A stretch of 20,038 nt of DNA, taken from UHGV virus genome UHGV-1340863; one strand, written 5' to 3'. Under the pieces are notes generated by a model. The model saw only the letters and a program-made list of their open reading frames with translations, did no database searches and was not told where the DNA came from. How positions within the stretch are numbered: position 1 is the first letter of the stretch; each line of letters starts with the position of its first letter. This DNA comes from a virus. The position numbers and the translations under genes were made by a program. Shown piece after piece: positions 2,945 through 20,038 of the stretch.

Positions 2945-2982
2945 ATGCTTGGGTTACATGAGTCAAATAGAAAAAAGATACT

Positions 2983-3010
2983 TGATTTAACAGAGATTTA
3001 TTTTATAAAT
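2983..3010 (+). promoter_or_regulatory. Candidate sigma70 promoter upstream of the TIR gene (TTGATT-N16-TATAAA)
   Basis: TTGATT at 2983-2988 and TATAAA at 3005-3010 with 16-nt spacing in an AT-rich leader. Pattern match only. Confidence 0.25.
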
Positions 3011-3031
3011 GAGAGGGTGCAGAATTACGTA

Positions 3032-3052
3032 GCAATACATGCTGCAATACAT
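3032..3052 (+). repeat. Direct repeat GCAATACAT x2 (candidate integrase arm-type sites, attL side)
   Basis: gcaatacat at 3032-3040 and 3044-3052; the same GCAATACA motif recurs at the other element end (13525-13561). Confidence 0.5.
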
Positions 3053-3162
3053 GGTTAGGGAAAAGCCTTCTTGGCATCGTACAAAAAACAAACCGAATTT
3101 TTTCTAACACAGCCAAGTAAAGCCTCCTTCACTTAATTAGTTAAATTATAAAGGAATATTCA

Positions 3163-4305
3163 ATGAAAATTTTTCTTGCTCATGCAAAAGAAGATGAAAC
3201 GATAACTGAAGAAATCTATGAAAGGCTAAAAAGTGGAGGATATTCCCCTTGGATGGATGTAAAAGATATACCCGCTGGCGTAAACTGGGATTATGAAATC
3301 CAAAAAAACTTCGCTAATTCAAACTTGATAATCCTTATCCTTAGCAAAGTGAGCACTCAGAAAAATGGTTATATTCGCCGCGAAATAAATGACGCCATTG
3401 ATAAACTAAAGTATTACAAACCAGATGATGTGTTCGTGATACCATTACTTATTGATGATTGCGAAGTACCCGCCTACATATCAAGCAAGCTCCAATTCAT
3501 TGATTTTAAGAGAAATGATGGTTGGGACATTTTATCTAGATCTTTAAGATTAGCAGCATCGCAACAAAAACTTGAAATATCTCAAGGTATCACTTATGGG
3601 CCATTTAACTTTAGCAGCGAGGTTTTCAAGGAAGAATATAACAAGATCCCAGGGCATGAAATTGAAATAGCATATCCAAGAATTGAAAGCCATACATTAC
3701 CGAAATCAGCAAAACTCATTAGTGATTACTTTTCAGGAAAAGCGGCTTTACATATTTTTTCTGAACGCACATCACTATGGCCAGGAACACCATATTGGGA
3801 TGAAGAATATAAACACACTTACACTAGTTCCTATAATGAAAGTTATAACATCTCATACTGTAACGAAAATGTCATGAGCATCCTTCATTCCGTACATTGG
3901 TATGGTGCGGGAGCAGCACACCCTAACAGTCATTTTGAAACTAGTAATTTCGTAATAACCAAGGATGACTACGCATACAAATTTAGTTTATGGGATGTAT
4001 TTACCGAAGGGAAAGAGCAAGAAGCGATTAATAAGATAAAACAAAAAATAATCTCTGAATCAGCTCGTGAATTTTGGGAGAAAACTGGTGAAAAACCAAG
4101 TGAGGACGACATTAGTACGTTTGCAACGGGTATCATGGATAGTAACTTAGACTCGTTCACAATAAATAGTGATGGATTTAGATTCCATTTTGCACCTTAC
4201 GAAATTCATGCATATGCTTTTGGTTCTTGGGAATTCTTTATCTCATTCTTTGAAGTAATAGACTTCCTTAAAGAGGATGGAATTTACTCTCTAATAAGGA
4301 GTTAA
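3163..4305 (+). CDS. TIR-domain protein (N-terminal TIR about 135 aa plus about 245-aa C-terminal domain of unknown function); candidate anti-phage NADase-type defence protein
   Basis: 380-aa ORF with AAGGAA Shine-Dalgarno 7 nt upstream of ATG. The N-terminus MKIFLAHAKEDE...GYSPWMDVKDIPAGVNWDYEIQKNFANSNLIILILSKVSTQKNGYIRREINDAIDK...DDVFVIPLLID has the bacterial TIR pattern, with a candidate catalytic Glu near residue 74 in YIRREI. Strongly AT-rich compared with its neighbours. I cannot assign the C-terminal domain by eye. Confidence 0.75.
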   Translation: MKIFLAHAKEDETITEEIYERLKSGGYSPWMDVKDIPAGVNWDYEIQKNFANSNLIILILSKVSTQKNGYIRREINDAIDKLKYYKPDDVFVIPLLIDDCEVPAYISSKLQFIDFKRNDGWDILSRSLRLAASQQKLEISQGITYGPFNFSSEVFKEEYNKIPGHEIEIAYPRIESHTLPKSAKLISDYFSGKAALHIFSERTSLWPGTPYWDEEYKHTYTSSYNESYNISYCNENVMSILHSVHWYGAGAAHPNSHFETSNFVITKDDYAYKFSLWDVFTEGKEQEAINKIKQKIISESAREFWEKTGEKPSEDDISTFATGIMDSNLDSFTINSDGFRFHFAPYEIHAYAFGSWEFFISFFEVIDFLKEDGIYSLIRS

Positions 4306-4314
4306 CATTTCAAT

Positions 4315-4337
4315 AAGCCTGAAATTTAATCAGGCTT
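4315..4337 (+). terminator. Hairpin downstream of the TIR gene (candidate intrinsic terminator)
   Basis: aagcctga (4315-4322) / tcaggctt (4330-4337) with a 7-nt loop, followed by an A/T-rich tail atatacatttcc; begins 10 nt after the TIR stop codon. Confidence 0.4.
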
Positions 4338-4659
4338 ATATACATTTCCTTATGATTAAATTATTGCTGTTCTTAAGCAAAGATGCAGCCAGAAGTAATT
4401 CCCCCTCAAGCTTGCTTGCACACATAAAGAACTGACACAAAACTCTGCTGTAAAGTTGTCTAGCCACACAGCAAAAAACATATGAAACTTTGTTATTCGC
4501 AAACTGCTTGCTCTATATTCCACCATCAAGGCGCATAAAGCAATTGCAATGGCGCAGAAGTAGGCCATAACTATGAAGTGAAGCTAGCGGCGCGTTATTG
4601 GCCGCTTCTGAATAGTGCCTGATTCAACTCAGGGATAAGATTTTTTCTGGTGATAGACC

Positions 4660-4850
4660 GCGACGGATGGCAACAAAACCAGAGAAAGGAAACGACAGAG
4701 GCCAAAAAGCCTGTTTTTAGCACCTGTCGTTTCCTTTCTTTTTAGGGGGTGTTTTTAATAAAAACATTAAGTTACGGCGAAGAAGAACGGAAACGCCTTA
4801 AACAGGAAAATTTTCACAAATAGCAAAAAACTGCGCGCCTGACGCCCCGT
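4660..4850 (-). other. Second, element-borne lambda-type cos site (cosB-like R/I-site region plus variant cosN-like sequence)
   Basis: 4674-4840 aligns by eye, same orientation, with the helper cosB at 19872-20038, differing at roughly 10 positions. The adjacent cgcgcctgacgccccgtaacg (4829-4849) resembles the lambda cosN region (GTTACG GGGCGGCGACCT CGCGGG, from memory) but is variant. Confidence 0.8.
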
Positions 4851-4903
4851 AACGTTCTGGATCGCCGGAAAGGACCCGCCAGCCAGAGCGGGCCCTAATT
4901 TCA

Positions 4904-5287
4904 TCAACCAATCAGCTTATAGCGACCATCCCGTGCATTGCGGCGTACACGCTCAATCTTGAGGCATAGCGCCGCATCTGGCTTTTTTGGGACAGGTACG
5001 CGGCAATATTCAGAAGCGCGAGGAATATTATTTATCCAGTCGATCACTTCACTTAAATACCAGGCCTTACGCCCTTCCGTAACCTGCACACGCTCCGGGA
5101 ACTCTCCACTAGCCTCAAGGTTTAGCAGTGTACGACGACTCAGGGTTGTAATTTCCATCACCTGATTCATATCAACAAGGCGCTCGCTTAAACACATTTT
5201 GTCAGCGATAGCTTTTAATTCCTCTACAGCTTGATTCGGGTACATCATTTCGGCAATTGGCTTAAGGTCATTGTAATCATTCTGCAT
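4904..5287 (-). CDS. AlpA/excisionase-family wHTH protein, cos-adjacent (function unknown; regulator or packaging-redirection candidate)
   Basis: 127-aa ORF with AAGGGGGA SD. The segment ITTLSRRTLLNLEASGEFPERVQVTEGRKAWYLSEVIDWINN has the AlpA/Xis-type HTH signature; the gene ends 54 nt from the element cos. Confidence 0.6.
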   Translation of the reverse strand: MQNDYNDLKPIAEMMYPNQAVEELKAIADKMCLSERLVDMNQVMEITTLSRRTLLNLEASGEFPERVQVTEGRKAWYLSEVIDWINNIPRASEYCRVPVPKKPDAALCLKIERVRRNARDGRYKLIG

Positions 5288-5298
5288 TGTATCCCCCT

Positions 5299-5640
5299 TT
5301 ACACACGAGCCAGCGGCTGAACAGAAATACCTGAGCCAACAAACGCTGCAACCTTTACTGACAGTTCTTTAACAGACTCAGGCCAGTTCAGAGCATCAAC
5401 ATTTAAGACACCTGTCTTATAGACCTGAGCCTGTGTTTTTTTCGCGGTGTCGATTTGTACAGCGGAAACATAAACCGCTTTACCTACGCTCGAACCATCC
5501 CATACCACCAGTGCACCTGTTGCATCTTCCTGCATCAGTGGCGTAAATGCAGGAATTACCCCTTTATTAGCTGAAAATATCCCCAGCGTAGTCACCAGTG
5601 CTTCAGTGCCAGCCATGAGTTCAGTGTAATGAGTAGCCAT
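5299..5640 (-). CDS. Head decoration protein, lambda gpD-like (element-encoded paralogue)
   Basis: 113 aa; TPLMQEDATGALVVWDGSS...YKTGVLNVDALNWPESVKELSVKVAAFVGSGISV aligns with lambda D ([19 protein letters not shown]...[34 protein letters not shown]). AAGGGGGAG SD; start 10 nt after the E-like gene stop. Confidence 0.8.
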   Translation of the reverse strand: MATHYTELMAGTEALVTTLGIFSANKGVIPAFTPLMQEDATGALVVWDGSSVGKAVYVSAVQIDTAKKTQAQVYKTGVLNVDALNWPESVKELSVKVAAFVGSGISVQPLARV

Positions 5641-5649
5641 TGCTCCCCC

Positions 5650-6690
5650 TTAGCCAATGCGAACGGTAACAAAACGATTGATGCGGGCCGGTATTGGCTG
5701 TGGTGCTGAATGTGTCTGCACATATTCAATAGCCGGATCACCAGGCACAATATAGTTTTTCGGTGCAAGTTCGGCTTTAGTCAGCCCCATTCGGATTAGC
5801 TCCGGATCCTGAATACCGCCATAGGCGACAATCCCCTGAAGAGCCGTATTGCCAAGCACCATCAAATCAGGATCAAGGAAATGTTTTTCTGTTCCGTCCT
5901 CGTCGGTATAACGCCCGCTGTAAACAACAATCGCAACATCGCCCATATACCCTTTAAAACTCACCGAATCACCAAGGTCTTTAAGGGCCGTTTCCAGTTC
6001 GGAATTAGAACCACGACGGGTATCCAGAGCCTCTTTTATCGCTCTGAATGAACGGTATTTCTTCCATACATTACCGCCCATAATGATAATATTAGTGACG
6101 CCCTCACTAAATTCTGCGTAGCTCTCAATATCATCATTTGGATCAAAAGTTTCTTTATCCTTACCTGACCACTCAGCACCGCCAGACTGAGTGATGATAT
6201 TTTGTGGTTTAATATTCCAGTCCAGCTCATAACGTTCAATACCATCGCCCTCAATGATATTTTTCCCCGTTGTGATTGCCTGAACAGCAAGCCATTCAAT
6301 ACGTGCACGAATAGCTTTAGCTTGATTTACAATCGCCTGTTTAACTTTAATATTACGCGCCCCAAAAGCATTGTATTGCTCAGGTGATACACCAGCAGGG
6401 CGCACAGCTAACTTATTTGGATCAATGCTGCTTTTCGGCTTCATATAGCCTGGACGAATTGTTTTTGATTCGTACCCTTCGTCACGTGAAACTTTACTAC
6501 CCACCATAGGAGAACAAAACGCTGCAATTGGGATATTTGGATCGTCGATTGTATCAAGAATAATATCGCGCGATTCAAACATTACCGAGCGAGTAAAAAA
6601 CAAACTGGTAAACAACGCATTTAGTTGTTTTTGTACATCTACAGCATTAACCACCTGTACAAGCTGAGTAGGCGAATATAAATCAACCAT
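5650..6690 (-). CDS. Major capsid protein, lambda gpE-like (element-encoded, diverged paralogue of the interrupted helper E)
   Basis: Aligns with lambda E along its whole length, e.g. NIITQSGGAEWSGKDKETFDPNDDIESYAEF vs NNITQSGGTEWSKRDKSTYDPTDDIEAYALN, and FRAIKEALDTRRGSNSELETALKDLG...GDVAIVVYSG vs FKAVKEKLDTRRGSNSELETAVKDLG...GDVAIVVYSG. Start set at ATG 6688-6690 (MVDLYSPTQL..., SD AGAGG) rather than the ORF-track start at 6864; 346 aa vs 341 for E. Confidence 0.85.
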   Translation of the reverse strand: MVDLYSPTQLVQVVNAVDVQKQLNALFTSLFFTRSVMFESRDIILDTIDDPNIPIAAFCSPMVGSKVSRDEGYESKTIRPGYMKPKSSIDPNKLAVRPAGVSPEQYNAFGARNIKVKQAIVNQAKAIRARIEWLAVQAITTGKNIIEGDGIERYELDWNIKPQNIITQSGGAEWSGKDKETFDPNDDIESYAEFSEGVTNIIIMGGNVWKKYRSFRAIKEALDTRRGSNSELETALKDLGDSVSFKGYMGDVAIVVYSGRYTDEDGTEKHFLDPDLMVLGNTALQGIVAYGGIQDPELIRMGLTKAELAPKNYIVPGDPAIEYVQTHSAPQPIPARINRFVTVRIG

Positions 6691-6864
6691 ACGCATCCTC
6701 TTTGCATTCATTAAAAATAATTGTGGATATATGCTATCACCGATATTTGTCATGCGAATACATGCAACCGAGTGCAATGTTGTATAAAGTTTTGGGGTGA
6801 CAACTTCAGTGCGGAAAATTAGTGTTAATATCTTCACTCCCTTTGGTCGGGATTTATGTAGCAT

Positions 6865-6899
6865 GCCGGAAAATTTATTTTTTCCGGCCTTTTTTTATT
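6865..6899 (+). terminator. Strong intrinsic-terminator-like hairpin, active in plus orientation
   Basis: gccggaaaa (6865-6873) / ttttccggc (6880-6888) stem followed by a run of T residues (6889-6899). On the minus strand the stem is not followed by a U-tract. Confidence 0.5.
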
Positions 6900-6907
6900 G
6901 GCAATAT

Positions 6908-7357
6908 TTAAAACGGGATATCATCTCCCCATTGCTCATTATCTCCCACTGGTGGCTGGCTTCCTTGCTGATCTGCCTGTTGTTTTGCTCTGTTCAGTGC
7001 GTCAGTAGCCTGCCCCTGTTGGCCTTTATTGCCGCCCGGTCGCACCGATCGCGCACTGATTACGCTGTCTGCGATAACCTGCCAGCCCTGCCGCGTTTCG
7101 CCGTTCTGTCCAGTCCACTGGCTCATCTGCATGTTACCCGCCACGCTCAGGAGTTCGCCTTTGTGATGCTTTGCCAGCGCGTCGGCTTGTCTGCCAAACG
7201 CCAGGACAGATAACCACATCGTCGCCTGACCGTCATCCGACTGACTGCAGGGCAGTGATACCGCCATACGCGCCAGCGTCATGGGGGTGCCCTTGCTGGT
7301 CTGTTTTGTCTGCGGGTCGTCCACCAACCGCCCGTAAACTGATATTTGCGCCGTCAT
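6908..7357 (-). CDS. ssb: Single-stranded DNA-binding protein (SSB)
   Basis: 149 aa; N-terminal OB-fold-like region (ISVYGRLVDDPQ..., WTGQNGETRQGWQVIADSV), Gly/Gln-rich linker and the hallmark acidic C-terminal tail ...WGDDIPF. GGAGAG SD; ATGA overlap with the upstream ORF. Confidence 0.8.
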   Translation of the reverse strand: MTAQISVYGRLVDDPQTKQTSKGTPMTLARMAVSLPCSQSDDGQATMWLSVLAFGRQADALAKHHKGELLSVAGNMQMSQWTGQNGETRQGWQVIADSVISARSVRPGGNKGQQGQATDALNRAKQQADQQGSQPPVGDNEQWGDDIPF

Positions 7358-7599
7358 GCTGCCTGCTCTCCGGACTTAATATTGATTGTTGTCACTTCCT
7401 CCGCTTCAGCAATCTCCCGTTCGGTCAGAGTGGCAAAGTTTGCAGCCGCCGTTGTCATGAATGCGCTAATCAGTTCGGGATGTGCTTTCGCGTATCCTTC
7501 CCCGGCGTTGCGGTCGATGATTTTTATCGACACCCTTAACCAGTGTTCCGTCAAATCAAGGGCGTGCGATTGTGATTTTTTTGTGTGCTTCGCTGTCAT
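7354..7599 (-). CDS. Hypothetical protein (81 aa), translationally coupled to ssb
   Basis: ORF between the iteron cluster and ssb; its stop overlaps the ssb start (ATGA). No recognisable motif; weak RBS. Confidence 0.45.
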   Translation of the reverse strand: MTAKHTKKSQSHALDLTEHWLRVSIKIIDRNAGEGYAKAHPELISAFMTTAAANFATLTEREIAEAEEVTTINIKSGEQAA

Positions 7600-7650
7600 A
7601 GGCTTTATCTCACAGCAGTAAATTAAAATTTTTGCGTTTTAACCCTTCAC

Positions 7651-7873
7651 CTGTTCACCTTTTGATATTTTCTCTTTTAATTCATAATGTTAATTGGTGA
7701 ACAGTTTCACAAAAACTATTCACCAACTGTTCACCACTGTTCACCCTTGAAGCTCAATAAACAATCAAAAAGGTGAACAGTGAATAGTTTGGTGAACAGT
7801 TCATAAATAACTGTTCACCCTATAATATACTGATATAAAAGATATTTATGACAGGGTGAACAGTGGTGAACAG
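7651..7873. repeat. Iteron cluster: at least 9 copies of GGTGAACAG/CTGTTCACC in both orientations; candidate satellite origin of replication
   Basis: Copies at 7651-7659, 7696-7704, 7727-7735, 7737-7745, 7772-7780, 7791-7799, 7811-7819, 7855-7863 and 7865-7873, embedded in AT-rich DNA immediately downstream of the replication-protein gene. Confidence 0.8.
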
Positions 7874-7886
7874 TTATTCCATAAGT

Positions 7887-9707
7887 TTAATTTTTGCTAT
7901 CGTCATTAGTGACCGATACACATGATGGCATCCAGTCTTCTGATTCCTCCGTCAGTGTCACGTTTGAACGCAAACCGTGCTTCGTTTTCCGTTTCATATA
8001 CTCCCTGCCATATTCCGCCATTGCCCCCGGCATATCTTTACCGAAGCGCGTCAGTGTTACAGGTTTACCAAACCCATGTGCCCTCATATAAGCCAGATAG
8101 GCATGATAGAGATACCTGCGTGGGCTGAATGGCACAATTTCAGCATTACCCACTAACAGGCCATCACACATTACCGATGCCATGAGATAGCCGCAGAAGT
8201 CCACCAGCGAATCCCCCTCTCGCTTTATCGCCAGTGCTTCTTCAGATTTCTGCTGCTCATATAACAGGCGTCTGGCTTCGTCCTGATCAGCAAACCGTGT
8301 AAGCAGATGGCGAATCACTACCGCCAGCTCACCTTCTATTTTTTCCGCCAGCATCGAATCGCGTTCGTTCTCCGGTACAACTTCCGAAAAATTGAATATC
8401 ACCCGACGACGTGAGATCCCCCCGCTGCGGTCACTGAATGACATGGCGTTATTGTTAACCGCCAGCACTACTGCCGGAATACGCGTTGAATAGGGGGCTT
8501 TGTGTTTCGGGTCAATTGCCACCTTGTCACCGCCTGTAATGGCCTTAATCCCTGCCCCATCACCAGCGTAGCGGGTCATATCCGGCATGATAATCAGCGA
8601 AAAGCCAACCACTAACGCACGTTCCCTTGCATCTTCCAGCGCCTTCATGCTTGCTGATACTGTATTAGCCTTACCCGCCAGCATGGTGCAAATCTCCGCC
8701 ATCACACTTTTACCACTTCCCCCCGGCCCTGTTACCTCAATGAATAACTGCCAGTCGTACCGGTTCGCCAGCACCATGAATAATGCCGCCAGTACGCGAT
8801 CTGCCTTGCGGTCATTCTCAGCCACCGAACGGCGCAACCACTTCCAGAAATTCGGCGCATGTGTTGCCAGCGTTTCCCCCTCTGCTGGTGGGCTGAAAGG
8901 TAATTCACTGGCAATTAACAACCAGTCGTTTTTGTTATGCTCCCGAAAGTTACCAGTTCTGGTATCAAATACCCCGTTACTGAATCCAATCAGGTTACGG
9001 GCTGTATTCCCCATTACAGGCAAACTTAACTTCATGGTATCTACCGCCGATTTAATAGCGTTCTGCGAATAGCTGATCTCCGCATCAATGAAAATCTGCG
9101 CCATAGCACGCTGTAACTCTTTATCCTGAACCGGCTCCCATACAACGCCGTTGTAATGATGAACGGTGTCAGAGTCGGCATTGATTGCCAGTTCGCCGCC
9201 GTAATGTGCAAGGAGAACTTCACCGCGCTGGCTGGCCCCCATCTGATTCAACGCCAAAGATGAAGCACGCTCGTCATTTTTGCGCTCAGCCTTCTTAACT
9301 GGCAGTTCAATCACCAGACTTTCCCCATGCTCCGCTTCAGCTTTTAGGCCGACAAGGCGCGGAGTCCAGTCTTCAGGCTCTCGATCAACAAAGCTACGGT
9401 AACAACGTGCTTCCTTTACGCCTGCAATAGCAAGTAATGTCGCAACCTTCGTCAGACTTTTCTCTGCAATCTTTCCGGCACGATAAACACGCACATAATG
9501 ACGGCCTTCATCGATAATTTGCATATCATCCAGGTTTTCCAGTTGTTCCGTACCCAGAATGACTGGTGGTGTATCATCTGCTGCAATATGCTTACCTGCC
9601 CATTCATTCCATTCTTTTGCATGGCTCCAGGCATCACTGCCAGCAAAAATGATGACTTCCGTCATTTTGTCGCGCGGTTGGTATTTTAAGTTCGGAGCAC
9701 GTTTCAT
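7887..9707 (-). CDS. Replication initiator: D5/P4-alpha-type SF3 helicase-primase (PICI Pri-Rep-like)
   Basis: 606 aa; Walker A motif VTGPGGSGKS with a downstream hydrophobic stretch ending in acidic residues (LIIMPDM); overall resemblance to the C-terminal NTPase of phage/plasmid primases. GGAGGT SD; ATGA overlap with the upstream small ORF; iterons directly downstream. Confidence 0.75.
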   Translation of the reverse strand: MKRAPNLKYQPRDKMTEVIIFAGSDAWSHAKEWNEWAGKHIAADDTPPVILGTEQLENLDDMQIIDEGRHYVRVYRAGKIAEKSLTKVATLLAIAGVKEARCYRSFVDREPEDWTPRLVGLKAEAEHGESLVIELPVKKAERKNDERASSLALNQMGASQRGEVLLAHYGGELAINADSDTVHHYNGVVWEPVQDKELQRAMAQIFIDAEISYSQNAIKSAVDTMKLSLPVMGNTARNLIGFSNGVFDTRTGNFREHNKNDWLLIASELPFSPPAEGETLATHAPNFWKWLRRSVAENDRKADRVLAALFMVLANRYDWQLFIEVTGPGGSGKSVMAEICTMLAGKANTVSASMKALEDARERALVVGFSLIIMPDMTRYAGDGAGIKAITGGDKVAIDPKHKAPYSTRIPAVVLAVNNNAMSFSDRSGGISRRRVIFNFSEVVPENERDSMLAEKIEGELAVVIRHLLTRFADQDEARRLLYEQQKSEEALAIKREGDSLVDFCGYLMASVMCDGLLVGNAEIVPFSPRRYLYHAYLAYMRAHGFGKPVTLTRFGKDMPGAMAEYGREYMKRKTKHGLRSNVTLTEESEDWMPSCVSVTNDDSKN

Positions 9708-9991
9708 TTGTTACCTCCGGCAACTAACATTGCCCGAATTTTACGGATATAGCCTGCGGCACGCCTCTGATTATCTGTCTTGCAATTTTTTACCAGAATG
9801 AAATCTCTTTCGAACTGCTGACGCGGCATAACACATTCAAAATCATAACCATCACGCAAATAAGAGACACGACGATCATCAACCGAAATAATCTTTACCC
9901 GATAGCCATAGCTGTCTTTGAAAATATCCCCAAGGCTGATTTTTGAATGAGTTTGACCGCTGGCAATAAAGCCAGAAAATTTATTTTTCAT
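9704..9991 (-). CDS. Hypothetical protein (95 aa), replication operon
   Basis: ORF in an operon-like array with stop/start overlap to the helicase-primase gene; no recognisable motif. Confidence 0.5.
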   Translation of the reverse strand: MKNKFSGFIASGQTHSKISLGDIFKDSYGYRVKIISVDDRRVSYLRDGYDFECVMPRQQFERDFILVKNCKTDNQRRAAGYIRKIRAMLVAGGNK

Positions 9992-9994
9992 TTT

Positions 9995-10219
9995 TTATTC
10001 TCCGGTATAGCTCTGGTCGTGTATTTTTATAGCTTCATCCAGCTCTTTGATGACAGGATCAAGTAACGTAATTAACGCTCCAGCTAAATTAGCATCCCGT
10101 TCATCGTGTTCCGCATTTGTTGTCCCATCAAGCCAGGTTGATAAGATTTCTCGCATATTTTTGCCACAAACGAGCGCGTTTTCAGCATGTGTCAGCACTT
10201 TAAAATAAAGATCATTCAT
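9995..10219 (-). CDS. Hypothetical protein (74 aa), replication operon
   Basis: Strong AGGAGGTG SD upstream of ATG at 10217-10219; overlaps the end of the upstream ORF by 8 nt. Confidence 0.5.
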   Translation of the reverse strand: MNDLYFKVLTHAENALVCGKNMREILSTWLDGTTNAEHDERDANLAGALITLLDPVIKELDEAIKIHDQSYTGE

Positions 10220-10577
10220 GGCACACCTCCTGACGAATACGGGCGGCGAATATCATCACGTAGCCAGTTGGGAATTGCTGGCGGGCTTCCTGTTCGCTGG
10301 CGGCCTCGATGTGTATTACGCGTGGTTGTGCGGTGCTCAGGGCGATAAAACGCCAGATGAAATTGTTTTCGCATTTCTGAATAAACAGCGTGTTTTCTTC
10401 ACGCCCTTTCCAGAAAGCCGCAGTATAGCCCATCTCCTTAACCATCTTGCGGGCATCAACCAGCGTGTCAGCGGCAACATGTACCGTAGTTGCTCCATCT
10501 GCCATGCGGTCGTGGTGTAGTGCCAGAAAGGTGTATATAAATTTAGGGTGAGTTTGGGTATGCTGTGTTCCAGCCAT
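10212..10577 (-). CDS. Hypothetical protein (121 aa), first gene of the leftward replication operon
   Basis: C-terminal 121 codons of the 304-aa track ORF, starting at ATG 10575-10577 (MAGTQHTQTH...) with a GAGGT SD. The long N-terminal extension in the track overlaps the operator region and the divergent gene and is rejected. Confidence 0.5.
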   Translation of the reverse strand: MAGTQHTQTHPKFIYTFLALHHDRMADGATTVHVAADTLVDARKMVKEMGYTAAFWKGREENTLFIQKCENNFIWRFIALSTAQPRVIHIEAASEQEARQQFPTGYVMIFAARIRQEVCHE

Positions 10578-10664
10578 AATCGTTACCTCGTTTAACGGTT
10601 TGGTTAGAAGCCCGGTTAGTGTTCGCGCACTGCCGGGTTTCGTCGTTTTTATGAATCGATCATT

Positions 10665-10766
10665 GTGAGATACATAGCGACCATGATGTGAGATATACAT
10701 TATATTGTGGTGATATACATTGCAAGTGTTTTTATATCTCACTTTTGTGTATAGTGATATACACAT
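10665..10766. promoter_or_regulatory. Operator-like repeat cluster (GTGAGATA(TA)CAT x5, one inverted) in a divergent promoter region
   Basis: gtgagatacat 10665-10675, gtgagatatacat 10688-10700, gtgatatacat 10710-10720, inverted tatatctcac 10733-10742, gtgatatacacat 10754-10766; lies between the divergent genes starting at 10577 (-) and 10786 (+). Confidence 0.6.
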
Positions 10767-10785
10767 AACAAATTGGTGATTAACT

Positions 10786-11088
10786 ATGTCTGTATACAAA
10801 AATGCAAAATCGCAAATGACAACGATCAGGGTTCCCCACGATGTTATGGAGGGCATGGAATCCGTAAAACTGGACGGCGAAAGCAACGCCGGATTCATAG
10901 TAACCGCCATGCGCGGTGAGATCGCCCGCCGCCAGGCAGAAGGAAGCGGAGAAAATCCCCTCGTGTCTTCACTGGATGCCTTAGCTAAGGTCGAACAAAT
11001 CGGCATCAAGGCAGCGGAGGAAATCGGGCAACTCGTAGCCGTCGCTCGTGAAGAACTCCAGCGGCGTAAAGCCAAAGAATCTGAATAA
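10786..11088 (+). CDS. Putative small DNA-binding regulator (possible ribbon-helix-helix fold), divergent from the replication operon
   Basis: 100-aa ORF with GGTGA SD; N-terminal TTIRVPHDVMEGMESV resembles an RHH beta-strand/helix start. Position next to the operator repeats fits a repressor or activator role. Fold assignment is a guess. Confidence 0.45.
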   Translation: MSVYKNAKSQMTTIRVPHDVMEGMESVKLDGESNAGFIVTAMRGEIARRQAEGSGENPLVSSLDALAKVEQIGIKAAEEIGQLVAVAREELQRRKAKESE

Positions 11089-11097
11089 TTACTATCA

Positions 11098-11124
11098 GCG
11101 CCGTGATGTGAGTAACTACGGCGC
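11098..11124 (+). terminator. Hairpin downstream of the regulator gene
   Basis: gcgccgt (11098-11104) / acggcgc (11118-11124) stem with 13-nt loop, 10 nt after the stop codon; the downstream tail is only moderately T-rich. Confidence 0.35.
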
Positions 11125-11438
11125 ATTGCTATGTAAATACTGGCAATAAACAGAAAAGGTAGTTCTACTCCGAATAATTTTATCTGACACTACTCCTGAA
11201 CTAACATGCGCTTATCTTACAGGATATAAATATAGATCCATAAAATCACGATTAAATAAAGTCGCTCCAAACATAAACCACACCCAACGCTTAACAAGAT
11301 AGCAACAAACAGATAAATAACTTGCAGAAATATTTATCGCAAGGATTATCATTATTAATTACAAATCACTTTACCAAGTCATTCCCCTCTCTTATCATAA
11401 AGAGAAAGTAATAAATAAGTTAAGGGAGTTAGAATACT

Positions 11439-11975
11439 ATGAATCTAAAAAAAATAGCCACAAACATAAAAAACAAGATAATAGAAACATTCAATAAACT
11501 TATATTAGAGGCATCTAAAACCCCCACACAAGATGAAATTAAAATACTTGAGAGAAGAAGTAAAAAGTTTAATTACTCCTTTTTCTCATACGCAGTCACA
11601 GGAGCCATAATGGTTTTTTGCTCTCAACCATTAATAAAATACGCAAACCCAATGCTTATTTTATTGAGTGGTCTGTTACTGTCTATCATCATTATCCTTC
11701 TCAGAATGATTTATATTTCACAAGCGAATGCATCATGGACAACCAAAAAACGTTCACATGTACTAGTTCATTTTCTTTCTGCATGTTTCATAGCGTCAAC
11801 ATTGACGTTGTTATATCAGGCTTACGATAATAACATCACACACAAATTGTACTGTAAAAATATACAACAACTTATTGAAAAAAGGATAGAAACAGAAAAA
11901 AATATCAGCATATTCAGTGGGATGCAATGCACCCCGGCATATGATTACTCTTTATTTGGATTTAATCTCTTATAA
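11439..11975 (+). CDS. AT-rich multi-pass membrane protein (178 aa), function unknown; cargo gene candidate
   Basis: Three hydrophobic helices (AVTGAIMVFCSQPLI, MLILLSGLLLSIIIILLRMIYI, VLVHFLSACFIASTLTLLYQAY); GGGAG SD upstream; strongly AT-rich island (about 11100-12040) flanked by GC-richer element genes. Confidence 0.6.
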   Translation: MNLKKIATNIKNKIIETFNKLILEASKTPTQDEIKILERRSKKFNYSFFSYAVTGAIMVFCSQPLIKYANPMLILLSGLLLSIIIILLRMIYISQANASWTTKKRSHVLVHFLSACFIASTLTLLYQAYDNNITHKLYCKNIQQLIEKRIETEKNISIFSGMQCTPAYDYSLFGFNLL

Positions 11976-12044
11976 AGAATGTTATTACTGATTTGAGTGC
12001 AAATTCTCAAATCAGTAATTCATAATATTTTATTCTGAGATAAT

Positions 12045-12272
12045 TTAAACTACCCACTCACCTCGAATCCATGCCTGCACTTCTGAAAGACGATATGCAA
12101 CAGCAGTGGAGCCAATCTTGATCCGCTTAGGAAATTTCCCTTCCTTCTCCAGCTTCCAGCGTGTGCTGTTCGCAAGAGTGGTTAGCTCCCGACATTCTTT
12201 CTCACGGATCATACGATCGATGTTAGGAATGTACTCCAGACCCTTTTTATCAACAATCGCCATTTTTTTCAT
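12045..12272 (-). CDS. AlpA-family HTH protein (excisionase / transcriptional activator candidate)
   Basis: 75 aa; LTTLANSTRWKLEKEGKFPKRIKIGSTAVAYRLSEVQAWIRGE matches the AlpA/Xis HTH pattern (..EGKFPKP.K.G.R...W...E.Q.WI); directly downstream of int. Confidence 0.75.
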   Translation of the reverse strand: MKKMAIVDKKGLEYIPNIDRMIREKECRELTTLANSTRWKLEKEGKFPKRIKIGSTAVAYRLSEVQAWIRGEWVV

Positions 12273-12273
12273 G

Positions 12274-13509
12274 TTAACCAGCCTTTTGTTTGAGGATTAT
12301 CACTTTTGAATCAGCACCTGCGATGCTATTGAGATATGTAGTCCAGAGTTCCAGAGCATCCAGTTTTTTAGCCATAAACTTACTCCGGTTGTAAACACCT
12401 GCCACGCCAGGTAGCGCATGGCCTAACAGTTGTTCTACTACATAAAATTCAACACCGAGATCACTTAGATGAGTAGATAGCGTTCTTCTAAGGTCGTGTA
12501 GTGACCATTGTTTTTCATGGCCCAAACGTTTACCGATTTTCCCCCCAATCTTGCTTACGCTTTCTCTAATTCGCAGACTTCCCAGCACATAACCAGTATG
12601 TTTTGTCTCTTCGTGAACATCCGTTACCCACTGTCGTAGAATTTCAGGTACTGGTCTGACGATTTCAACACCAGTTTTTGAGTGATCTTTTGGTACAGTC
12701 CAAACCCAACTTTCGAGATCCCATTCGCTCCATTCTGATAATCGGGCTTCACTCATTCGACATCCAAATACTGTACAAAGTACAAACATTTTTCGCGTGT
12801 ATTCAGACATTAGTTTTAAATCAGGCTCGACAAAAATTGCTTTCCAGAGCTGGCCCAGCTCGGCTTCATCCAGAACCCGATCCCGCTTACCTGCAATCTG
12901 CCCCACATCACTCATGCGCAAATCCTTTAAAGCATCACACGTCGCGTACTGGCGTACCCGACAAAAACGAAGAGCTAATTTAGTGTCAGAAAAAACATAC
13001 GCCGCCATAACTGGTGCATTACGTTTAATTCGGTCAAAACAGTCCAGCCATTCATATAGGTGAGTGTCATTTACAGGCAAATGACCGATATAGGGAAAAA
13101 TATGCTTTCGAAATCTGCCAAGCGTTACAGCATGAGTTTTACGACGCACCTTACAGTAATTTTCATACCAGTAATTTAGTGCATCCTCCACTGTGACCGG
13201 CTTTAAGCGTTCTTCAGCCTGAATCTTAATCTGGATACGCGGATCACGTTTGTCAGCCAACCAACCACGGCACTCGTCGCGCTTTTCCCTTGCCTGTTTG
13301 AGTGACATATCAGGATATTTACCCAACGTTAGCCAGACCGGAGCAGCCCGGCCACCTGCTAACCTGTAGAAGAAAACAAAGCTCACAGCCCCCTTGGTAC
13401 TCACACGAATAGAAAGCCCCTTTCCATCAGCAATGGTGATCTGCTTTTCTCTGGGTTTCCCCAGATATCCTTTAAGTGCTTTGTCGCTCAGTTTGTTCTC
13501 GCCAGCCAT
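12274..13509 (-). CDS. int: Tyrosine site-specific integrase (P4-type, N-terminal arm-binding domain)
   Basis: 411 aa from ATG 13507-13509 (MAGENKLSDK...); C-terminal catalytic region with HDLRRT and LLGH motifs plus a downstream Tyr; terminal gene of the element, beside the right junction. Confidence 0.88.
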   Translation of the reverse strand: MAGENKLSDKALKGYLGKPREKQITIADGKGLSIRVSTKGAVSFVFFYRLAGGRAAPVWLTLGKYPDMSLKQAREKRDECRGWLADKRDPRIQIKIQAEERLKPVTVEDALNYWYENYCKVRRKTHAVTLGRFRKHIFPYIGHLPVNDTHLYEWLDCFDRIKRNAPVMAAYVFSDTKLALRFCRVRQYATCDALKDLRMSDVGQIAGKRDRVLDEAELGQLWKAIFVEPDLKLMSEYTRKMFVLCTVFGCRMSEARLSEWSEWDLESWVWTVPKDHSKTGVEIVRPVPEILRQWVTDVHEETKHTGYVLGSLRIRESVSKIGGKIGKRLGHEKQWSLHDLRRTLSTHLSDLGVEFYVVEQLLGHALPGVAGVYNRSKFMAKKLDALELWTTYLNSIAGADSKVIILKQKAG

Positions 13510-13524
13510 TTTAAGCCCCAAAAA

Positions 13525-13561
13525 GCAATACAAGCTGCAATACAGAGATGATTGCAACACA
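13525..13561 (+). repeat. Direct repeats GCAATACA x2 plus GCAACACA (candidate integrase arm-type sites, attR side / int leader)
   Basis: gcaataca at 13525-13532 and 13537-13544, gcaacaca at 13554-13561; same motif and orientation as 3032-3052 at the opposite end. Confidence 0.5.
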
Positions 13562-13641
13562 CAGATAACGAGGAAAATCCAGTGAAAGCGCCAGATAGAC
13601 TTATTCTTTATTATCAAAAGATTAAGTGTAAAAACCAGCAA

Positions 13642-13917
13642 CTACACGAAAGCCTCAGAAAGCCATGCTAAGTGCTTCGGCTTGACATATCCCGGCGTAA
13701 ATTCAGAGGTGGAGCCGCCACGGGAACGGATAACCTCACCGGAAACAATCGGCGAAACGTACAGCGCCATGTTTACCAGTCCCGGAATTTGTGAGAGATA
13801 GACTTTCTCCGTGGTGAAGGGATAGCTCTCACGGAAAAAGAGACGCAGAAACAGCGGATCAAACTTAAATTTCTGCTCATTTGCCGCCAGCAGCTGGGCG
13901 GTTGTGTACATCGACAT
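13642..13917 (-). pseudogene. E: Major capsid protein E, N-terminal 82 codons fused to 9 element-derived codons and a stop
   Basis: MSMYTTAQLLAANEQKFKFDPLFLRLFFRESYPFTTEKVYLSQIPGLVNMALYVSPIVSGEVIRSRGGSTSEFTPGYVKPKH matches lambda E 1-82, then LAWLSEAFV-stop encoded by element sequence (13642-13671). Confidence 0.9.
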
Positions 13918-13972
13918 AAAAAAATCCCGTAAAAAAAGCCGCACAGGCGGCCTTTAGTGATGAAGGGTAAAG

Positions 13973-19861: not shown

Positions 19862-20038
19862 TGTTCATTCCACGGACAAAAACAGAGAAAGGAAACGACA
19901 GAGGCCAAAAAGCCCGTTTTCAGCACCTGTCGTTTCCTTTCTTTTCAGGGAGTGTTTTAAATAAAAACATTAAGTTACGGCGAAGAAGAACGGAAACGCC
20001 TTAAACCGGAAAATTTTCATAAATAGCGAAAACCCGCG
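19862..20038 (-). other. Helper cosB region (Nu1-binding R sites and IHF site); window ends at the edge of cosN
   Basis: Reverse complement reads CGCGGGTTTTCGCTATTTATGAAAATTTTCCGGTTTAAGGCGTTTCCGTTCTTCTTCG...GAAAGGAAACGACAGG..., matching the left end of the lambda genome just after the 12-nt cohesive end GGGCGGCGACCT (from memory). Confidence 0.85.

Follow-up and report, generated by a model that had tools for sequence, protein, structure and literature searches.

A predicted TIR effector joined to a putative RsiV-like sensor module in the cargo slot of a helper-embedded phage satellite

The virus genome UHGV-1340863, a stretch of 20,038 nucleotides that we refer to in its entirety as the window, contains at positions 3163–4305 an AT-rich gene for a 380-residue protein with an N-terminal TIR domain. 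An initial annotation of the DNA, made from its letters and open reading frames (ORFs), had proposed a single-gene TIR defence with an unassigned C-terminal domain. Here we assign the C-terminal domain to a recognized family, PdaC/DUF4163 plus DUF3298, with the fold of the lysozyme-binding protein RsiV. We consider it reasonably probable that the gene encodes a complete abortive-infection system in one protein, carried as satellite cargo, in which a TIR NAD+ hydrolase (NADase) effector would be controlled by an RsiV-like sensor. The earlier proposal thus survives in its solo gene, its intact glutamate and its sensor-like C-terminal module, and is revised in its view that this module has no recognizable kin.

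The TIR domain and its candidate catalytic glutamate

Profile searches of the protein, of the kind suggested with the initial annotation, assigned TIR_2 to the N-terminal part, and DUF3298 together with a sub-threshold PdaC match to the C-terminal part. The TIR_2 match (Pfam PF13676) spans aa 3–122 with E=2.8e-21 and 76.7 bits, well above the cut-off of 28, which bears out the TIR domain first recognized by its residue pattern. Among proteins of solved structure, the TIR domains of SPARTA TIR-APAZ are nearest in sequence (E ~4e-8, aa 2–118). In these alignments Glu74, the glutamate of YIRREI already singled out as a catalytic candidate, pairs with TIR-APAZ E77, which we take to be the catalytic residue. 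Glu74 is invariant across an alignment of 58 family sequences, as are F4, W30, D32, G39, W42 and S61. We assume that a glutamate at the position of SARM1 E642 or SPARTA E77 marks an NADase-competent TIR, and Glu74, conserved in 58/58 homologues and aligned with SPARTA E77, is such a residue. The domain is predicted to be an NAD+-hydrolysing effector.

The C-terminal module and its two invariant motifs

The C-terminal region, about 245 residues that had been thought to match nothing nameable, consists of two subdomains. DUF3298 (PF11738) is found at aa 278–362 (E=1e-10; 42.8 bits, cut-off 24.1). PdaC/DUF4163 (PF13739), at aa 166–256, is present structurally despite a sub-threshold Pfam score (16.4–20.9 bits vs 29.1; E=8e-4 for that half scanned alone). 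By sequence, the region matches the uncharacterised protein 3CYG (E=1e-4 with the single sequence, 4e-8 with a family profile), and a structure search with a predicted model retrieves the same fold in 3CYG, RsiV, BF2082 and PA4972. The two-subdomain fold is superposable on the solved DUF4163/DUF3298 members, and its identification as a PdaC/DUF4163–DUF3298 module with the RsiV fold provides a concrete hypothesis for the ligand site.

A feature of the C-terminal half is that it is variable outside two highly conserved motifs. The first is the stretch WYGAGAAHPN (aa 246–255), with Y247, G248, G250, A252, H253 and N255 invariant; the second is PYxxxxYAxG (aa 345–354), in which the family alignment shows Y346 and Y351 to be invariant. 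RsiV is known to use two loops to bind lysozyme at its active-site cleft (Hastie et al., PMC5014341): within loop E163–T171, S169 touches lysozyme D52, and within loop Y255–Y261, both tyrosines touch lysozyme E35 (PMC5014341). Those two loops sit where the invariant motifs sit here: in hidden Markov model (HMM) alignments, RsiV ETTQASSYTQ lies opposite YGAGAAHPN, and RsiV YEVAPGY opposite PY...Y. The motifs thus fall on the one surface of this fold for which ligand binding has been defined by experiment. By analogy with RsiV, H253, N255, Y346 and Y351 would cluster in space, and the conserved motifs probably mark the binding site of the module, not the identity of its ligand.

The protein also differs from RsiV (PDB 5JEN). 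Sequence identity is only ~15%, and the first RsiV contact loop, ETTQASSY, differs from YGAGAAHPN; in the second loop the two tyrosines are kept (Y346 and Y351). RsiV is a membrane-anchored extracytoplasmic anti-sigma factor, whereas in the protein described here the N terminus is a TIR rather than an anti-sigma domain and no transmembrane anchor is present. A Kyte–Doolittle scan of the 380-residue protein revealed neither transmembrane segment nor signal peptide nor secretion motif (19-residue window maximum 1.27). By its sequence the protein is soluble and cytoplasmic; with no hydrophobic segment, it represents a cytoplasmic form of a fold that is familiar mainly from extracytoplasmic proteins. 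Secreted or lipoprotein DUF3298 members also exist that have AGAAHPN and PYxVAxYAxG motifs (P0255, P0256 and P0232), and the role of the motifs is therefore common to both compartments.

The lack of a signal peptide or secretion motif also speaks against a Tcp-like virulence factor that, as TcpC or BtpA, would interfere with animal Toll-like receptor (TLR)/MyD88 signalling. The hosts of the family (soil and water Burkholderiales, Xanthomonas, Sphingomonas, rhizobia, Deinococcus and Acidobacteria) and its prophage and defence-island contexts point the same way, and we regard such a function as highly improbable.

A constant module under exchangeable heads

A word-indexed search for homologues gave 131 clusters at 90% identity, nearly all 380–425 aa in length and composed of TIR_2 and DUF3298. 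Identity to the query is 64–71% in Enterobacterales, ~40% in Burkholderia, Pseudomonas, Xanthomonas and Collimonas, and ~27% in Sphingomonas; the family extends to soil and water Burkholderiales, rhizobia, Deinococcus and Acidobacteria. We then used a HMMER profile of the C-terminal module alone in an exhaustive search of 50%-identity cluster representatives, of which 140 matched at E<=1e-30 and 9188 at E<=1e-3. The presence of a TIR among the best 150 matches was scored by a local TIR-HMM scan. An N-terminal TIR was found in 102 of these 150, the remainder being mostly contig fragments, with a few secreted proteins. In three of the best 150 (P0230, P0249 and P0261), an HNH nuclease replaces the TIR at the N terminus, and in one (P0171) the replacement is DUF4062; another of them (P0140) combines TIR, module and a C-terminal beta-helix. 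That DUF4062 might be a TIR in disguise was considered and rejected: hhalign of the P0171 N terminus against the TIR profile gave no match, and we treat it as a different head domain.

A C-terminal module that stays constant under exchangeable enzymatic heads is likely to be the sensor. In agreement with this role, the C-terminal half is more variable than the TIR: identities are 59–61% vs 78% for the TIR in Enterobacterales, and 47–52% vs 62% in the beta/gamma-proteobacterial group. Together, these comparisons of sequences argue that the module behaves like a sensor.

Genomic neighbourhoods and the absence of a partner

Clustering of the neighbouring genes (three ORFs on each side) at 54 species-level loci found no neighbour family in more than 3 loci; there is therefore no conserved partner gene. 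A conserved non-defence operon, which the initial annotation had named as a finding that would overturn it, does not appear at these 54 loci. In the window, the neighbours of the TIR gene are a capsid fragment on one side and cos and alpA on the other, and, as first noted, no ThsA, STING, SAVED, Argonaute or reverse transcriptase partner is adjacent.

The homologues occur in diverse mobile and defence-related settings. In Yersinia they lie in integrase-bearing elements, in one setting beside an AAA_23/AAA_13 ATPase, in another beside a pair of RVT_1 genes and in a third close to a YobI-type ATPase. The Burkholderia cepacia homologue is a prophage moron that separates the early region from terS and has an nSTAND3-Mrr gene close by, and that of Xanthomonas lies within a prophage, upstream of HNH/terL. 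The Cronobacter homologue adjoins AbiTii, the Sphingomonas homologue is next to a MobA relaxase and an MmeI-type methyltransferase, and the family is also found in chromosomal islets. One of the HNH-headed relatives (locus L012, 8001–8999 of metagenome contig ERZ27314219 k119_55544) is part of a dense defence island with two methyltransferases, a DpnII-type restriction endonuclease, GmrSD, NERD, and SIR2 with DUF87. A batch Pfam and PADLOC scan of 149 neighbouring ORFs at 27 loci also returned defence matches (mad3/mad8, PDC-S19, IetAS, a DRT-like reverse transcriptase and type IV DinG). The suggested check on whether homologues sit in defence islands or other satellites thus points to prophages, integrative elements and loci beside defence genes, and to mixed neighbours at the 27 loci.

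These contexts bear on whether the TIR is an end-point enzyme or a signal generator. Bacterial ThsB-type TIRs are signal generators, and a Thoeris-like protein would make a nucleotide signal (a cyclic ADP-ribose (cADPR) isomer or a molecule of the histidine-ADP-ribose (His-ADPR) type) for an effector encoded elsewhere, with no depletion of NAD+. ThsB shares the TIR fold and acts in phage defence, and its models do match here, weakly and over the TIR only, with a score far under the family cut-off (16.4 vs 220 bits). No ThsA-type effector is adjacent in the window, no neighbour is conserved across the 54 loci, and the gene reaches unrelated hosts on its own, by way of satellites, prophages and integrative elements, as a protein that depended on a chromosomal partner would hardly do. 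Moreover, some relatives have an HNH nuclease in place of the TIR, and such a nuclease is a terminal effector rather than a signal maker; in sequence, the TIR is closest to the SPARTA NADases. Because there is no partner, an HNH head is possible and the nearest TIR sequences are NADases, a terminal NADase is likelier than signalling, and we judge the Thoeris-like alternative to be unlikely.

Comparison with known TIR systems

The defining feature of each of the other established systems was also looked for. No APAZ domain was detected (PADLOC and PDB matches cover the TIR only) and no prokaryotic Argonaute (pAgo) is adjacent, so that the resemblance to SPARTA TIR-APAZ, including the aligned catalytic glutamate, is limited to the TIR. 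The CBASS/Pycsar models SAVED_TIR and CAP12 match the TIR part only, with no cyclase nearby, and the retron-TIR/RT-TIR model NF042941 reaches 28 bits against a cut-off of 600, again on the TIR part only. Neither Pfam nor the structure search found the NTPase domain of TIR-NLR and Avs proteins in the 380 residues. Since the features that define Thoeris, SPARTA, CBASS/Pycsar, retron-TIR and Avs are each absent, the protein is a member of none of them; the initial annotation had likewise placed it outside the multi-gene TIR systems.

The closest parallels are single-gene systems. SpbK of the Bacillus subtilis element ICEBs1 is, as here, a partnerless single gene on a mobile element that joins a TIR to a non-TIR recognition region. 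However, in SpbK (filament structure 9phb) the TIR is C-terminal, reversing the order seen here, the recognition region is unrelated to the PdaC/DUF3298 module, and there is no sequence kinship beyond the TIR fold. SpbK is triggered by a protein of phage SPbeta. Rst_TIR-NLR of P4-like satellites and the TIR-type Avs/bNACHT proteins are also satellite-borne single-gene TIR defences in an accessory hotspot. In such NLR-like satellite defence proteins, TIR, SIR2 and Mrr_cat heads are exchanged on a constant sensor (PMC9122126), which parallels the TIR, HNH and DUF4062 swaps on the PdaC/DUF3298 module. TIR-NLR proteins are built on a STAND/NACHT NTPase and TPR repeats and are ~1000 aa or more in length, whereas the protein here has neither feature and only 380 aa. 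With a PdaC/DUF3298 module as the sensor, nucleotide-driven oligomerisation cannot be the switch.

The combination of domains appears to be a new one. PADLOC-DB 2.0 contains no model spanning the C-terminal half, the literature searched included no paper combining DUF3298 or DUF4163 with TIR or phage defence, and searches on WP_000688840.1 and on RsiV with phage defence gave nothing relevant. The TIR-PdaC/DUF3298 architecture is not described in the Enterobacter satellite paper or the P2/P4 hotspot paper. We rate the system as one in which an effector and a logic that are familiar are coupled to a new family of sensor, on a carrier element that is already known.

A proposed model for sensing and abortive infection

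We propose the following sequence of events. In an uninfected cell, the TIR-PdaC/DUF3298 protein would be inactive. Upon infection, a cue would bind the conserved "saddle" of the C-terminal module; the cue would most likely be a phage protein, with a lysozyme-like or muralytic enzyme, or a small molecule derived from the cell wall, as more specific possibilities. Binding would allow the TIRs to self-associate, and the assembled TIRs would hydrolyse NAD+, as in SPARTA, SpbK and TIR-NLR proteins. Loss of NAD+ would arrest or kill the cell before a competing phage finishes its cycle, and protect the clonal population, the satellite and the helper prophage.

A more specific version of this model, suggested by the analogy with RsiV, is that the module is a cytoplasmic receptor for phage muralytic enzymes (endolysins and virion lysozymes) or for released cell-wall fragments. 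Docking on the RsiV-type lysozyme saddle would then switch on the suicide effector, TIR here and HNH in relatives. We consider this version rather doubtful.

Several observations weigh against the model as a whole or in part. The neighbours at the 27 scanned loci mix defence matches with many housekeeping genes, a pattern that fits small islets and that is a tally, not a formal enrichment test. A tblastn search of 50,697 phage genomes gave zero matches, and just 2 full-length matches were found on plasmids. In the predicted model the relative orientation of the two domains is uncertain (predicted TM-score (pTM) 0.64), so that autoinhibition in the uninfected cell is putative. A GGAH(G/P) motif is present in most DUF4163/DUF3298 proteins (3CYG, 3S5T, 4E72 and MPT64), including secreted ones. 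Being general to the family, its invariance may be structural rather than related to a ligand. RsiV is a member that has lost this motif, and MPT64 does not bind hen lysozyme (PMC5014341); the analogy with RsiV would accordingly place the site and nothing more. A search of viral folds in BFVD produced no significant match to the C-terminal module, so that, with the tblastn result, phage-encoded copies or mimics of it are unsupported in those two sets.

The same invariant residues could be read in another way. The C-terminal module might be an enzyme, or a binder of a cell-wall metabolite, that links peptidoglycan precursors or turnover to NAD+ and has no immune role. This would account for the invariant His/Asn/Tyr/Tyr cluster, for relatives that are fused to a peptidoglycan deacetylase (hence the Pfam name PdaC) or bind lysozyme, and for the same motif in secreted lipoproteins. 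Yet the gene is patchily distributed and horizontally transferred (16/5426 E. coli genomes) and low in GC content, and its sites on mobile elements, together with HNH-swapped versions in a defence island, misfit a housekeeping regulator. We find this explanation quite improbable and retain the sensor–effector model.

The gene and its possible transcript signals

The features of the locus are collected in Table 1. The RefSeq protein WP_000688840.1 is the same 380-aa protein, its sole annotation being "TIR domain-containing protein". From the base composition, the chance of 380 stop-free codons at 35% GC is calculated as ~1e-12. The locus is present, with an intact coding sequence at 99.6–100% identity, in 16 of 5426 complete E. 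coli genomes, and all 16 copies adjoin a truncated "major capsid protein" gene. The region of the TIR gene (3001–4500) has a GC content of 0.35–0.36, compared with mostly 0.39–0.52 elsewhere in the carrier element and 0.53–0.63 in the prophage flanks. This agrees with the sharply lower GC reported at first, with the exception of a second low-GC patch of the element (0.31, near 11250–12000).

A Shine–Dalgarno (SD)-like AAAGGAA lies 7 nt 5' of the ATG. Further upstream, a weak promoter-like pair (TTGATT/16 nt/TATAAA, ~2983–3010) was read by eye and provides a candidate promoter; a consensus promoter scan called none upstream of the gene. The hairpin past the stop codon folds as RNA at -13.5 kcal/mol (z=-6.2) and is possibly the transcript end of the TIR gene. 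It is not followed by a T-run and the terminator scan made no call there; an Rfam scan of the entire window had zero matches.

Table 1 Features of the TIR gene, its product and its carrier in the window
Feature	Position	Strand	Basis or detail
TIR-PdaC/DUF3298 gene	3163..4305	+	ATG start, TAA stop, 380 aa
TIR_2 domain, predicted NAD+ glycohydrolase effector	aa 3-122, 3169..3528	+	Pfam
Glu74 codon, candidate catalytic glutamate in YIRREI	3382..3384	+	Family invariance, SPARTA alignment
PdaC/DUF4163-like half	aa 166-256, 3658..3930	+	Pfam below gathering score; fold matches
Motif YGAGAAHPN	aa 247-255, 3901..3927	+	Equivalent in position to RsiV lysozyme-contact loop E163-T171
DUF3298 domain	aa 278-362, 3994..4248	+	Pfam PF11738, above gathering score
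Motif PYEIHAYAFG	aa 345-354, 4195..4224	+	Equivalent to RsiV loop Y255-Y261
Hairpin, perfect 10-bp stem and 7-nt loop	4313..4339	+	Starts 8 nt past TIR-gene stop
Upstream AT-rich region, attachment (att) junction to ATG	2954..3162	+	Includes arm-type repeat 3031-3051 and SD-like AAAGGAA
Satellite/prophage junction beside TIR gene	2945..2953		Capsid frame PKHEVNPQ... resumes
Carrier, ~10.7-kb helper-embedded phage-inducible chromosomal island (PICI)	2954..13671	-	Inserted in gene E of lambdoid prophage

The carrier element

The carrier belongs to the published "11capE" class of helper-embedded PICIs. This type has been described by the Williams group (PMC10111431), whose paper does not mention a TIR-PdaC/DUF3298 cargo. 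PHROG and RefSeq annotation shows the lambda-like major capsid gene E to be split at ~2953 and ~13672. Codons 1 to ~90 of gene E are at 13672–13944 on the minus strand and end in ...TPGYVKPKH, after which foreign sequence follows. The two junctions (~2945–2953 and ~13672–13680) share an imperfect repeat only, (A/G)TGCTT(G/C)GG. In order, the element contains int, a small xis-like gene, the AT-rich ORF 11439–11975, an Icd-like gene, DUF4222, a P4-alpha-like primase, SSB, a capsid gene (gpE-like) and a decoration gene (gpD-like) of its own, the regulator AlpA, a cos region of lambda type and the TIR gene. The int, xis-like, primase, SSB, capsid, decoration and alpA genes share the minus strand with the late genes of the prophage, and the plus-strand genes are the TIR gene and ORF 11439–11975.

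The TIR gene comes last in the element, in the slot that separates cos from the att junction, and starts ~210 bp from that junction. Two sister elements, found in further E. coli strains, have at this position a 290-aa Mrr_cat protein or an unrelated one of 311 aa, so that the slot, which the initial annotation had already called accessory, is a variable one.

This setting raises the question of whether the gene serves the satellite itself, as a toxin, addiction or stress module for stabilisation or for control of helper induction rather than for defence against phages. Active TIR NADases are toxic, and a satellite embedded in its helper has a life cycle tied to the prophage, both of which would suit such a module. 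Against it, the TIR gene has no conserved small neighbour resembling an antitoxin, members of the family are found in defence islands and chromosomal islets as well as on satellites, and the sister satellites have other cargo in place of the TIR gene, which therefore lies outside satellite core biology. We give this role a low probability and continue to favour abortive infection.

The remaining parts of the element are of interest in their own right. The satellite cos (cosB) region (4673–4835, between the TIR gene and alpA) has its counterpart at 19875–20037, the region upstream of Nu1 in the helper prophage, to which it is 93% identical; its identity to lambda cos is 91%. The 3199 partial matches in E. 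coli could be taken as a sign of a very common element, a reading we reject: the shared 430 bp is the lambda-type cos region, 93% like that of the helper, and the partial matches are therefore lambdoid prophages generally. Between cos and the TIR gene, a 70-aa ORF on the minus strand (4356–4568) has no family match; the annotation of one sister element gives it as a partial pseudogene, and that of strain Rb-23 does not include it.

The satellite has gpE-like major capsid and gpD-like decoration genes of its own (5299–6864, minus strand) while gene E of the helper is interrupted, which suggests capsid substitution or size redirection. Directly downstream of the primase gene, at 7694–7884, the partly palindromic TGGTGAACAGTT recurs as three to four direct repeats, which are probably the iterons of a satellite replication origin. 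A 21-nt direct repeat, AGCAATACA(T/A)GCTGCAATACA, is found at 3031–3051 and 13524–13544, ~80–150 bp inside the ends of the element, and its two copies are likely to be integrase arm-binding sites. The AT-rich ORF 11439–11975 (plus strand, 178 aa, local GC ~0.31) is a second cargo gene, in a second variable slot near the integrase that in sister elements holds HicB, or SWIM and DUF2971 genes; no Pfam, PADLOC or PHROG family matches it. Finally, the 3' fragment of the split capsid gene includes an assembly gap of 100 N (2492–2591).

Implications

Single-protein TIR defences are known, and each new sensor domain adds another mode of infection detection. The sensor family is widespread (9188 cluster representatives at the looser threshold), and because its sole characterised member is a lysozyme receptor, the trigger hypothesis is testable by point mutants in the two invariant motifs. 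With an RsiV-like sensor, modular heads and clear mutational targets, the protein is a good experimental lead, and a satellite located inside its helper prophage offers a tractable case of how defence cargo spares the helper yet blocks competitors. If the module were indeed a muralytic receptor, it would be, to our knowledge, the first immune sensor for the lysis or cell-wall-attack machinery of phages, and would give a function to the large DUF4163/DUF3298 family. As TIR, HNH and DUF4062 heads all occur on this module, findings on a single protein would serve to annotate the whole modular family.

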